From the NCBI RefSeq assembly GCF_053078305.1, contig NZ_CP166879.1: a stretch of 64,000 bases of DNA. One strand, 5' to 3'. Shown here in pieces: positions 51,001 through 54,000 of this stretch. Positions within the stretch are counted from its first letter, which is position 1, and each line of letters opens with the position of its first letter. The position numbers are program-made.

Positions 51001-54000
51001 CGGAAAGCCTGCAACAGCAGGAAGCCAGCCGGATGTGGAGCACCACGCTGAGAAACCGGGCGCAAGCCAGTCCGCAGATGAAGGGCTGGCAACAGGCGCG
51101 GCAGAATTTGCGGGATTTTGCGGATCTGATGATGAAAAAGGAGACGGAGAAACAGGGTTTCACCCTCTCGTATATCAAAACGGTGACCTGGCAGGCCGAA
51201 CGGTTACTGAATCAGGAAACTCCACTGGAGTACATGCTGACGCAGTACCAGGAGACCCGCACGCAGAATCAGGACACACAGGCGCTGGAAAAAGAGATCA
51301 ACCAACGGCTGGATGGGCTGTTAAGCCGCTGGCTGTTGCTGAAAAATACCGGACAGGATATGGCAACGGACAGCAGCACCGTGCCAGTCCCTCCGACTCA
51401 TTGAGTTTAAGGAGAATAACAATGGCAAATCCCGTCTATCTGACACTGAACGGAGAACTTCAGGGGCTGATTTCATCCGGATGCTCGTCAATGCCGTCCA
51501 TCGGTAACAAAGCCCAGATTGCACATCAGGATCAGATCATGGTGACGTCACTGTCCCATGGTCTGAGCCGGGCGCAGAATGTCAACCACCAGGAGCTGAC
51601 CATCACGAAACCGGTGGACAAATCTTCCCCCCTGCTGGGCAAGGCCATTTCGGAGAATGAATGTCTGACCTGTGATTTTGTATTCTATCGCACCAACCGC
51701 TTTGGTGTTAATGAACCGTACTACAAGGTGAAACTGACTAACGCCCGGATCTCAAACATCGGCCTTACCGTTCCCCATACCATTAACGACAGCCCAGGAC
51801 AGCCGGAAGAGTCTGTGTCATTTACCTATGAGAGTATCAACTGGGAGCACAGCGTCGCCGGAACCAGTGCGTACAGCCTTTGGAGTGAACGGATTTTCTA
51901 AGTTACCTAGGAGTTTTTCATCTGCATTATTGTTATATTTTAAAAAGGCAATTTAACATTATAAAATAAAATGATAAAGTACGGTTAATCACGAATAAAA
52001 ATTCTTAATTAACCGTACCTGCTGTTTTATAGATGTGTATGATGTATTTTTGACAGTTCAACCGAAAACTCGAACTACAGCTTATATGTTGAGAGAACAA
52101 TAAATAACTTTAGTAAAGTTTTTTACTACTTCTAAAAAAATATATATGTAAAATTAATTAGCAGACTTGAACCAGAGTATAAATAGAAAAGAAAATGCTC
52201 TTTCTTGCTAAGTACCATTAAAACGTCTGGTATAAAACCTTACTACTGATAGCGATTCACCAGATCTTTAACCACTGCTGCGTACGTTTTCTGCTTAAGT
52301 TGTGAAATCTGCTGTTCTGCCACATCAAGGCTGTCAGAATTTTTATTCCCTATCTGCGGAAAAATCACTTTCGATTCATAATTCACAGGCGACCAGGTAG
52401 CCCACTCACCTGTAGCCACATCCACCAGCGTGAATCGAACCAAATAACGCAGTGACATCGTGTCAGTCAATTTTTGATTTTTATAATCTGACCAAACTAT
52501 TGATTTCAATCCAGAGTCATATTTTCCTGTCTGCAACGTATCCTGGAAAACAATAATCGCTTTCTGATGGCCTTTTGCCGCAACAAAACGTAATGCCTGC
52601 ATCCAGTTCATATTTTCGGCATCTACAACATCCAGACTTTCATCTTTGTTTTTGTCTTTATTACAAGTTACAGGTTTTTGCCTGTCAGGAATGCCAGAAA
52701 ATGTGGCAACTGTATAATATTTTCTCATCTCCTCCTGCATAATGGTTTCCGGTGCGCGACTGCCAGACTGAACAAGTATAACGGGAGAATTAAGAGGCAC
52801 ACGAAACTCATCTCCTTCAAGCGCAGCTTGAATATCCTCCTCGGATACAGCCAGTGTGGTTTCATTACCATATAAATCTTTGTCTGTTAGTTGCTGGGGA
52901 ACGTTTTTATTAATAGAACTTTGTGCGGTTTGAGTTTTTTTCTTTTTTTCATCAATAGGAGATTCAGAGGCACATCCTGCAAGCAGCGAGAATAATACAC
53001 ATATACAACAAACCCTTCTTAAATTCATAATCGGACACTCCCTCGCCTGTCATAATCATGGTAATGTTTAGCTAACGATTTTTAATTATATACTCCACTT
53101 GAATCAGAACAAACAAAAATAACAGCAAATATAAATTCATTAAATCAATAGAAAAATGAAAATCATAACATGCAAATATATTTAAATTGAATGATTCGAT
53201 AGTATGATTAAATATTAATGATATGGTCTACCATATGTGATTAACACATTTACAGCATAACAAAATCATAGACCGAAGAAATAGCGGGATTTAAATGCAA
53301 AAAACCGCAAAATTAAAAATCTTGCGGTTCTCTGAACCTCATTTTCATGAGGTGAATTTGGCGGAACGGACGGGACTCGAACCCGCGACCCCCTGCGTGA
53401 CAGGCAGGTATTCTAACCGACTGAACTACCGCTCCGCGTTGTGTTCCGTTGGGAACGAGGCGAATATTACGGATTGCCTCACCCGTCGTCAATGGTTTTT
53501 CTCATCTTTTGAATCGTTTGCTGCAAAAATCACCCAAGTCGCTATTTTTAGCGCCTTTCACAGGTATTTATGCTCGCCAGAGGCAGCTTCCGCCTTTCTT
53601 CTGCACCAGATCGAGACGGGCTTCATGTGCTGCAAGCTCTTCATCTGTCGCAAAAACAACGCGTAACTTACTTGCCTGACGTACAATGCGCTGAATTGTT
53701 GCTTCACCTTGTTGCTGCTGTGTCTCTCCTTCCATAGCAAAAGCCATCGACGTTTGACCACCGGTCATCGCCAGATAAACTTCCGCAAGGATCTGGGCAT
53801 CGAGTAATGCCCCGTGCAGCGTTCGTTTACTGTTATCTATTTCGTAGCGGGCACATAACGCATCGAGGCTGTTGCGTTTACCGGGAAACATTTTCCTCGC
53901 CACCGCAAGACTATCGGTGACCTTACAGAAGGTATTAGTCTTCGGAATATCGCGCTTGAGCAACGAGAACTCGTAGTCCATAAAGCCGATATCGAACGCT

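Follow-up and report, generated by a model that had tools for sequence, protein, structure and literature searches.

A type VI secretion (T6SS) island sits hard against a tRNA-Asp gene in the 64,000-nucleotide stretch of NZ_CP166879.1 analysed here (the window), and no integrase gene accompanies it. How did it get there? The initial annotation read the arrangement as an anciently fixed or integrase-free island with "decayed mobility functions", a phrase that implies a former integrase. The segment from approximately 9136 to 53352 is E. coli's well-known T6SS island at aspV, and it is integrase-free; it has been published already and is no new kind of element. It has gone by several names (the 37-kb island of EDL933, PAI I of LF82, Ec042-0210-0226 of EAEC 042, and T6SS-2 of Journet and Cascales), and the version examined here is an ExPEC/APEC-like allele of T6SS-2. 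The use of aspV as the site of this T6SS is on record (PMC5363993, PMC2941450, PMC2808357), as is the nomenclature (PMC10562709). The reading that we consider likely is that the island is chromosomally fixed cargo, not mobile by itself, in a permissive gap between aspV and yafV, spread by recombination in its flanks and lost by deletion.

The island and its parts

Gene order in the window is that of annotated E. coli genomes, at 98.8-99.9% identity. Starting from the tRNA gene aspV, one meets yafT, then the complete cluster of T6SS genes, then effector modules with VgrG and PAAR proteins, and last an ISAs1 (H-repeat) element broken by a stop, which abuts yafV (Table 1). The island thus lies between aspV and yafV, and it shares with the E. 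coli aspV T6SS island the same aspV site, the set and order of tss/tag genes, two hcp genes, an FHA-domain tagH, and VgrG modules downstream. Identity to the ExPEC-type cluster, for example that of UPEC strain F11, is at least 95% at the nucleotide level, and 577 genomes (F11 among them) match at 95-99% across 19.6 kb; the O157:H7 allele, in contrast, is only ~80% identical to the window. Two T6SS alleles that are ~80% identical share one locus, in 577 and ~2400 genomes, respectively.

Table 1. Features of the aspV-yafV interval and its borders, in window coordinates
Feature	Position	Strand	Basis or remark
yafV	8356-9135	+	Annotation; conserved core gene convergent with aspV, left border of hot spot
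Distal junction	9136-9546	.	yafV terminator region and 87-aa hypothetical ORF (9245-9508, -)
ISAs1-family (ISEc1/ISEc5-like, H-repeat) element	~9547-10837	-	Pfam DDE_Tnp_1 and DDE_Tnp_1_assoc
Effector module 2 and orphan cassettes	10838-23408	-	Pfam, NCBIfam, GC profile
DUF2859/PFL_4695 protein	11032-11526	-	
PAAR-like toxin with GHH2 nuclease domain	15185-16828	-	
PAAR-like toxin	17506-18756	-	
DUF6484, DUF2169 (module 2 region)	within 10838-23408	-	
TIGR02270-like protein; thioredoxin-fold protein	within 10838-23408	-	
Module 2 VgrG	21420-23408	-	
Effector module 1	23409-30882	-	Pfam
Module 1 small PAAR gene	within 23409-23769	-	Six-frame Pfam scan of gaps
Module 1 276-aa ORF	23770-24600	-	
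Module 1 VasX_N-family toxin	24622-27576	-	Pfam
Module 1 DUF4123 adaptor	27551-28765	-	Pfam
Module 1 VgrG	28765-30882	-	Pfam
Second hcp, divergent orientation	31103-31621	-	Pfam T6SS_HCP, E 1.5e-32
T6SS core operon	32323-51901	+	PS10-3 and AHM8C212RI annotations; gene-by-gene tblastn; translations; GC profile
yafT, lipoprotein gene, low GC	52243-53028	-	RefSeq annotation of near-identical genomes
Island-type aspV trailer	53296-53358	-	Two hairpins, the second followed by a U-run: predicted intrinsic terminator
aspV, tRNA-Asp(GTC)	53359-53435	-	ARAGORN; Rfam RF00005, 67.7 bits, E 1.4e-12
Candidate sigma-70-like promoter of aspV, TTGACG-17-TAATAT	53464-53492	-	Consensus scan only

The core operon (tssB, C, E, F, G, tagH, tssJ, K, L, H, vasI, tssA, tssM, vasL, hcp) has a GC content of 42-62% in 1-kb windows, mostly 51-62%. 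All 13 T6SS core genes (tssA-M, with hcp and vgrG) are present and stop-free; the accessory genes tagH and vasI are interrupted in this strain by nonsense codons (Q97* and E95*, respectively), and the other operon genes read through. At the other end of the island the composition changes: the module 2 region has 33-44% GC up to 22 kb, and its vgrG end (22-23.4 kb) 46-61%. The interval from 9.1 to 32 kb is a hypervariable effector end: the window's combination of two VgrG modules is found as a full set in none of 5426 complete E. coli genomes, and the best of them covers 74% of the interval.

The two junctions and the search for a recombinase

That the island abuts a tRNA-Asp gene is borne out by ARAGORN, by Rfam and by synteny (rrnH-aspU-dkgB...dnaQ-aspV-yafT), which assigns the gene as aspV; its sequence is identical to that of both aspV and aspU of K-12. 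The CCA end of the gene points toward the island. The span first singled out, 53029-53440, is made up of the tRNA gene and a 330-bp AT-rich spacer separating it from yafT. Rfam matches in the window are confined to rRNA, tRNA and two naRNA4/REP elements, none of them within this spacer. The island-type trailer of aspV (RNA fold -28.8 kcal/mol, z -6.3) takes the place of the ancestral aspV terminator from ~6 nt past the CCA; it is unlike the trailer that is conserved across genera, and E. whittamii and E. albertii share the island type. Homology between the island-bearing and the empty site resumes at 53353-53358, which puts the tRNA at one boundary of the insertion. Its tRNA-proximal gene is yafT, which is retained in K-12 and adjoins aspV without a break in 4071 of 5426 genomes, its alleles being 84-100% identical; a Pfam scan assigns it to no family.

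Entry by a tyrosine recombinase into the 3' end of aspV, followed by loss of the integrase, of attR and of the displaced trailer (a loss possibly linked to the distal ISAs1 insertion), would produce just such a junction: the occupied and empty sites of Escherichia part company only ~6 nt past the CCA, the island brings its own trailer and terminator, and tRNA-targeted integration would give the same picture. The atypical GC content of the island points the same way, as do two features of other aspV loci: in CFT073 the tRNA gene is used by elements of the integrase type, and in both CFT073 and S. arizonae the next gene after aspV encodes a DUF4942 protein of the kind seen in CP4-like islands. 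With the classical tRNA-linked PAIs and ICEs (P4-/CP4-type integrases) the island has in common its tRNA adjacency, its deviating GC content and its presence/absence polymorphism among strains; it differs from them in lacking an integrase, direct repeats at its flanks and, at its far end, a displaced tRNA trailer.

No integrase is found by Pfam and NCBIfam scans among the ORFs of at least 90 aa between 9.5 and 31.6 kb or in yafT, which upholds the original remark that none is visible. Pfam searches in all six frames, run over nine of the ten intergenic gaps that are 60 bp or longer (all but the 60-bp gap at 17446-17505), turn up neither an integrase nor a fragment of one, the sole find being the small PAAR gene. 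In genomes of 98.8-99.2% identity, annotation of the core (32.3 to 51.9 kb) shows nothing but tss/tag genes, so that the ORF and gap scans, taken together with it, place no recombinase gene or remnant inside the island. The right flank, from dnaQ to rrnH, holds housekeeping genes only. The check proposed at the outset, a repeat of the tRNA-Asp 3' end at the distal junction, comes out empty: 18-nt and 25-nt tRNA 3' ends, with up to three mismatches allowed, match only aspV and aspU, and blastn-short yields nothing above chance in the island. The window lacks the ancestral terminator and spacer, and so does the distal junction, where tRNA-anchored integration should have left them, even though yafV there is intact to its stop codon. 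(Two technical notes: a 10-nt match to the ancestral spacer at 9161-9170 lies in the wrong orientation, has an E value of 4.3 and is taken as chance; CFT073, tried as a positive control for att repeats, is of no use as one: its island is mosaic and much rearranged, DUF4942 adjoins the tRNA, the integrase is truncated and lies 22 kb off, and the first 50 kb have no tRNA-derived repeat.) In sum, the island lacks a recombinase, att repeats and any other transfer machinery, and it would not be mobile by itself. "Decayed mobility functions" is a reading without direct support: neither an integrase remnant, nor an attR, nor a displaced ancestral trailer is found at the distal end. For these reasons, and for others that emerge from comparison with other genera (below), we think it unlikely, while giving it some weight, that an integrase brought the island to aspV.

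The distal end has a mobile element of its own. The transposase of the ISAs1 element has both of its domains, but they are split: an in-frame stop at 10412-10414 separates the ORFs 10415-10693 and 9557-10414. The transposase is not intact; it is a pseudogene, annotated with the same internal stop in PS10-3. The limits of the element were set from its matches to paralogues; inverted repeats were tried for the same purpose, and only weak AT-rich pairs were found around it. The 278 bp at its 3' end (9558-9835) persist in K-12 as yafF. The initial annotation had called this disrupted H-repeat transposase the only mobile-element gene; that is so for the island but not for the window, which also holds, outside the island, rayT (a REP-associated tyrosine transposase, 420-917). 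Might the element have brought the island in or set it in motion, as part of a composite transposon or by one-ended transposition? It stands exactly at the distal end, beside yafV, and truncated remnants of it mark the end points of deletions in K-12 and PSJ-07. But the island has a single copy, with an internal stop common to related strains and no second copy at the aspV end; the element has ~5 paralogous places per E. coli genome at ~94-95% identity, which suggests a later passenger; and the E. whittamii locus follows the order of the window over the part compared (to ~43.6 kb), which stops short of the distal end. Delivery by ISAs1 is the least probable of the origins weighed here, and is very improbable indeed.

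The left boundary of the island calls for a comment. BLAST homology ends at 9119-9122, as if yafV were truncated there, yet the gene is equally long in every strain, with variation confined to its last codons; the boundary is therefore placed after the stop codon at 9135.

An old island in a gap that many genera fill

The suggested comparison with strains lacking the island is readily made. In 757 of 5426 complete E. coli genomes the site is empty, the order being yafV, 98 bp and aspV with its terminator. Empty sites at which yafV adjoins aspV are found in other genera as well: among 50 species loci with yafV in range, 19 have gaps of no more than 260 bp. The aspV terminator of the empty E. 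coli site is conserved from Siccibacter to Klebsiella. On this comparative evidence, the empty arrangement is the ancestral state, and the gap between these convergent core genes was originally ~100 bp long. It is conceivable that the converse holds, that the island is ancestral to the Enterobacteriaceae at aspV and that the "empty" sites are clean secondary deletions: a T6SS stands beside aspV in Escherichia, Salmonella, Citrobacter and Intestinirhabdus (PMC2907695), and deletion derivatives do exist (K-12, PSJ-07). The conserved sequence of the empty site already contradicts this proposal, since at least eight genera have empty sites with a homologous aspV terminator and a short spacer to yafV; non-T6SS cargo fills the same gap in many species; and three lineages are represented among the T6SS clusters at aspV, with TssH identities of only 42-49% between them, so that these clusters are independent arrivals. 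The proposal is, in our estimation, highly improbable.

Within Escherichia, the island is old and looks chromosomally fixed, as the initial annotation had surmised. E. whittamii has the same trailer, yafT and T6SS at aspV as the window; in E. albertii the trailer and yafT are again the same, up to the point where the contig breaks off; K-12 has lost the middle of the island but retains its two ends, yafT and, as yafF, a remnant of ISAs1. PSJ-07 is a second deletion derivative, with an IS1 between aspV and its truncated ISAs1. In two genomes with the empty site (A31 and B36), the flanks diverge from those of the window by a uniform 1.4-2.4%, with no visible recombination edge.

A metagenome-assembled Pseudocitrobacter genome (MAG) offers a view of transfer over a greater distance. 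Its T6SS core is of the window type, 94.8% identical, whereas identity in the backbone is 78%. A chimeric assembly is unlikely: the break in identity lies between yafT and hcp and not at the tRNA, the best match to this core among complete E. coli genomes does not exceed 94.9%, and as far as the terminator, and through it, the backbone shows 92% identity to two species of Pseudocitrobacter. The junction lies past the resident terminator, and simple tRNA-anchored recombination cannot explain that transfer; that the same yafT-T6SS block stands beyond an intact ancestral terminator is also a further argument against integrase entry.

How general is this use of the gap? The bracket dnaQ-aspV...yafV-fadE is conserved in 80 species of Enterobacteriaceae, and its contents differ: the aspV-yafV gap ranges from 54 bp to more than 9.8 kb and holds transporters, regulators, metabolic genes and the three T6SS lineages. 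Integrase-free cargo appears to be usual here across genera, at least among the tRNA-proximal ORFs sampled: none of 20 cluster representatives, all from cargo-bearing loci, is an integrase (these being the tRNA-proximal ORFs within 10 kb, 20 of 126 ORF clusters). No locus has a partial tRNA-Asp repeat downstream of aspV, and most of the cargo lies beyond an intact ancestral aspV terminator rather than at the tRNA 3' end. CFT073, with its truncated integrase, is the exception. This pattern tells further against integrase entry and, with it, against "decayed mobility": where integrase-free cargo is usual, and most of it stands beyond an intact terminator, tRNA adjacency is weak evidence for integrase-mediated entry of the island in the window.

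That judgement agrees with the analysis of Touchon et al. 2009 (PMC2617782), who described integrase-free hot spots and proposed that their contents spread by recombination in flanking core genes. The aspV-yafV site resembles those hot spots in that one pair of core genes brackets varied cargo with no integrase; it differs in having a tRNA gene at its edge, which is a minority case in that work. Salmonella provides a parallel: T6SS clusters adjoin the orthologous aspV in SPI-6 and SPI-20 (and in S. arizonae, too, a T6SS follows aspV), SPI-20 is reported to have no obvious flanking direct repeats, and aspV was recognised there as a recurrent insertion site of different T6SSs (PMC2907695). SPI-6 and SPI-20 nevertheless are of another lineage than the window (TssC 44% and TssH 47% identical), with another gene order and no yafT.

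A proposed history of the locus

The following history can be suggested. The island would have reached a permissive intergenic gap long ago, in an event that can no longer be reconstructed, and would since have been distributed, exchanged for other alleles, remodelled at its effector end, and lost. Gain, exchange and loss probably came about by homologous recombination and deletion: the likely sites of the former would be the conserved flanks, dnaQ-aspV on one side and yafV-fadE on the other, and deletion may have been IS-associated or spontaneous. Exchange and mosaicism are suggested by the two ~80% identical alleles at one locus, the hypervariable effector end, the spread of yafT alleles and the Pseudocitrobacter core; loss by deletion is exemplified by K-12 and PSJ-07. 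On this account aspV would matter because it is conserved and marks where a permissive gap begins, and not as an active att site. Three observations count against it: the ~6-nt divergence point, discussed above; the Pseudocitrobacter junction past the resident terminator, a transfer beyond the reach of simple tRNA-anchored recombination; and the use of aspV by integrase-bearing elements in some strains, of which the mosaic island of CFT073 is the example.

A more adventurous thought is that an unrecognised, integrase-independent mechanism of capture operates at the aspV-yafV gap and repeatedly recruits T6SS clusters there. It is prompted by the three T6SS lineages of Escherichia, Salmonella and Citrobacter, and by the exchange of a core between Escherichia and Pseudocitrobacter. 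We rate it as a long shot. If it were true, the trailer/terminator of tRNA-Asp or the ends of the T6SS islands (the yafT-proximal sequence, for example) would direct insertion preferentially to this site.

The island, its position at aspV and the absence of direct repeats at aspV-linked T6SS islands are all in print already, and it is well established that integrase-free hot spots take part in the dynamics of E. coli genomes. What the locus offers is, in the first place, a caution: adjacency to a tRNA gene is not by itself evidence for integrase-mediated insertion or for "decayed mobility". It also offers a reference for annotating aspV-linked islands: the site in its ancestral, empty form, the exact ends of the inserted segment and the way in which the gap is used across the family are now documented.

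The aspV site with and without the island

The window is E. coli chromosome, with up to 99.9% identity around the aspV site to complete E. coli genomes (megablast against 5426). The order 23S-5S-aspU-dkgB-yafC-yafD-yafE-mltD-gloB-yafS-rnhA-dnaQ-aspV-yafT, as annotated by RefSeq in near-identical PS10-3 and in K-12, identifies the tRNA gene next to the island as aspV; its sequence is that of K-12 aspV. (The second copy, aspU, has a one-base difference in its variable loop, T48G, relative to aspV and to the two copies of K-12.) The segment 53029-53440 comprises this tRNA gene and a 330-bp AT-rich spacer extending to it from the yafT start codon; two strong hairpins lie 3' of aspV, with a U-run after the second (-28.8 kcal/mol, z -6.3). 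YafT and the spacer (52243-53435) are unusually variable among E. coli: 84% identity to K-12, as against ~95-99% for adjacent core genes. YafT itself belongs to no Pfam family and shows nothing more than a lipoprotein-like N-terminus.

The initial annotation had proposed a comparison with island-lacking strains, and this turned up both a truly empty site and deletion derivatives. The empty site, yafV-98 bp-aspV, is found in 757 of the 5426 genomes (B36, A31, Br_54 and ST131 among them); its homology to the window stops at 9119-9122 and restarts at 53353-53358. Since, in addition, yafV has the same length everywhere, with variation confined to its last codons, the inserted segment is ~9136-53352, or 44.2 kb. 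K-12 retains aspV, the island-type trailer (the sequence 3' of aspV) and yafT as far as window 52240, and also yafV and a 278-bp piece of ISAs1 (yafF, window 9558-9835); the interval between holds ykfM and yafU' instead (10258-11085 of L003, the K-12 locus), neither of which has a nucleotide match anywhere in the window. These two genes probably come from a different effector/immunity cassette of another island allele. With both island ends kept and the middle replaced, K-12 is thus the deletion scar of an island-bearing ancestor. In PSJ-07, aspV is separated from a truncated ISAs1 by IS1. Of the 5426 genomes, 4071 have yafT contiguous with aspV.

The island is the already published aspV-associated T6SS island, described in EDL933 (PMC5363993), in LF82, 536, UTI89, APEC O1, S88 and ED1a (PMC2941450) and in EAEC 042 (PMC2808357); where PMC10562709 quotes the scheme of Journet and Cascales, the EDL933/APEC O1 cluster is T6SS-2. 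The window has the ExPEC-type allele, all 19.6 kb matched at 95-99% identity in 577 genomes; another allele, ~80% identical and at the same locus, occurs in O157:H7, 55989 and roughly 2400 further genomes.

Gene content and the search for an integrase

Features of the island and its flanks (window positions; strand shown for some features only)
Feature	Position	Remarks
rayT	420-917 (-)	REP-associated tyrosine transposase; left flank, outside island
naRNA4/REP-type Rfam matches, two	1016-1093 and 4345-4422 (-)	left flank
yafV	8356-9135	left edge
87-aa ORF		between yafV and ISAs1-family element
ISAs1-family element	~9547-10837	transposase broken by in-frame stop
DUF2859 gene	11032-11526 (-)	neighbours 11565-12116, 12487-12900
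Effector module 2		VgrG, DUF6484, DUF2169, two PAAR-like toxins (one with GHH2 nuclease domain), several low-GC orphan ORFs
Effector module 1		VgrG, DUF4123 adaptor, VasX_N toxin, small PAAR gene
Divergent hcp	31103-31621	
T6SS operon	32323-51901	tssBCEFG-tagH-tssJKL-tssH-vasI-tssA-tssM-vasL-hcp
tagH	37640-38920	CAA>TAA, codon 97
vasI	44307-45050	GAA>TAA, codon 95
yafT	52243-53028	first gene leftwards from aspV
aspV, tRNA-Asp(GTC)	53359-53435 (-)	ARAGORN; Rfam agrees
Sigma-70-like promoter candidate	53464-53492	upstream of aspV
aspU, tRNA-Asp(GTC)	61583-61659	ARAGORN; Rfam agrees

Does the island carry an integrase? Recombinase families have no match among the ORFs of at least 90 aa that lie outside the T6SS core, and the core is fully explained by tss and tag genes; six-frame Pfam scans of 9 of the 10 intergenic gaps that are 60 bp or longer (~3.25 kb, the 60-bp gap 17446-17505 being left out; E up to 1) yielded a PAAR motif only. 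With as many as 3 mismatches allowed, the terminal 18-nt and 25-nt stretches at the tRNA 3' end occur solely in aspV and aspU, and the whole tRNA as a blastn-short query gave only chance matches of 9-15 nt. The initial observation of a tRNA-adjacent, integrase-free island is therefore upheld, neither an intact integrase nor att repeats having come to light. Delivery by the ISAs1-family element is unlikely, because that element is present in a single copy interrupted by a stop.

GC content is mostly 51-62% in the T6SS core and 33-44% in the greater part of the effector end (where the vgrG genes are richer in GC), with a backbone of ~50%. The effector end (9100-32000) is hypervariable: at most 74% of it is covered in one place by any of the 5426 genomes, and its two VgrG modules (VasX-like toxin; PAAR-nuclease and PAAR-metallopeptidase-like toxins) are not found together in the best-matching genomes.

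All 13 T6SS core genes are intact. Single-base nonsense mutations interrupt the accessory genes tagH and vasI, neither of which is broken in PS10-3 or AHM8C212RI, the nearest complete genomes; the stops reflect either early decay of the T6SS in this strain or sequencing error. Besides the ISAs1 element, only one island gene has a mobile-element link: an isolated gene in the low-GC orphan region nearby, beside a thioredoxin-fold gene, with a DUF2859/TIGR03765 "PFL_4695 family integrating conjugative element protein" domain (116.6 bits; cutoff 59.75). This gene may be an ICE scrap, or else an immunity or accessory fold put to new use.

The aspV-yafV gap across Enterobacteriaceae

A scan based on DnaQ, with each species represented by a single genome, gave 80 Enterobacteriaceae loci; tRNA-Asp follows dnaQ in 78, and in the other 2 the contig ends first. 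YafV is reached within 10 kb in 50 loci, across a gap of no more than 260 bp in 19 of them (including Trabulsiella, Pseudocitrobacter, Siccibacter, Pseudescherichia, Enterobacter, Kluyvera, Citrobacter and Klebsiella). These short spacers can be aligned, and the aspV terminator (CCA-ctATTCAGAAgGCCTGAATCAgcAATGATTCAGGCcTTCGTCGTTT) is kept across genera and in the E. coli empty site as well; the empty state is therefore ancestral and the island an insertion. The converse, an ancestral island with empty sites generated by deletion, is a weak proposition, contradicted by that conserved sequence. The island is old, since E. whittamii has the same trailer-yafT-T6SS arrangement and E. albertii the same trailer and yafT, followed by a contig end. 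"Anciently fixed" and "integrase-free" survive from the initial interpretation; "decayed mobility functions" are not in evidence.

The remaining loci hold 0.7 to >9.8 kb of cargo. When its ORFs were clustered and 20 tRNA-proximal representatives scanned, these proved to be GntR, LysR and LuxR regulators, transporters, a porin, dehydrogenases, T6SS proteins (ImpA_N, TssG) and a DUF4942 protein, with no integrase among the 20; partial tRNA-Asp repeats downstream of aspV are absent from all loci. In most occupied loci the ancestral terminator directly follows the tRNA, which places the cargo beyond the transcription unit of the tRNA rather than in the 3' end of the tRNA gene. In Escherichia, divergence begins ~6 nt past the CCA, and a new terminator is contributed by the island, as would be compatible with an ancient tRNA-targeted integration that later lost its integrase, attR and displaced trailer; such an entry nevertheless seems improbable, nothing in the sequence giving it positive support.

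Three divergent T6SS lineages occupy the gap, their TssH proteins 42-49% identical, in line with Blondel et al. (PMC2907695): 1) the window type; 2) that of E. coli E69, Escherichia sp. MOD1-EC7003 and C. amalonaticus; 3) the S. arizonae type, SPI-20. Different lineages or vgrG modules stand directly after aspV in E69, MOD1-EC7003, C. amalonaticus, S. arizonae and Intestinirhabdus alba (L011, L012, L031, L015 and L068 of the compared aspV loci). A Pseudocitrobacter sp. MAG contig (k127_60303, 9663-19452; locus L054) carries yafT and a window-type core (94.8% nucleotide identity). The backbone of this contig shares 78% identity with E. coli (yafT likewise 78%) and 92% with two Pseudocitrobacter species, both with empty sites; its island starts beyond the resident aspV terminator. 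The contrast between core and backbone, with the empty sites of those two species, points to transfer of the T6SS block between genera, into the same gap at a different junction.

Persistence of the island

As a feature of E. coli the island is already known and ordinary. Gene flux in this species takes place at only a small number of gaps that separate core genes, and homologous recombination of the flanking sequence spreads what has been acquired (Touchon et al. 2009, PMC2617782); the data for this locus fit that picture. Lying between the convergent transcription units of aspV and yafV, the gap is an obviously permissive place. The island is probably best regarded as a fixed block of cargo, not mobile by itself, that is kept, swapped and lost through recombination and deletion.
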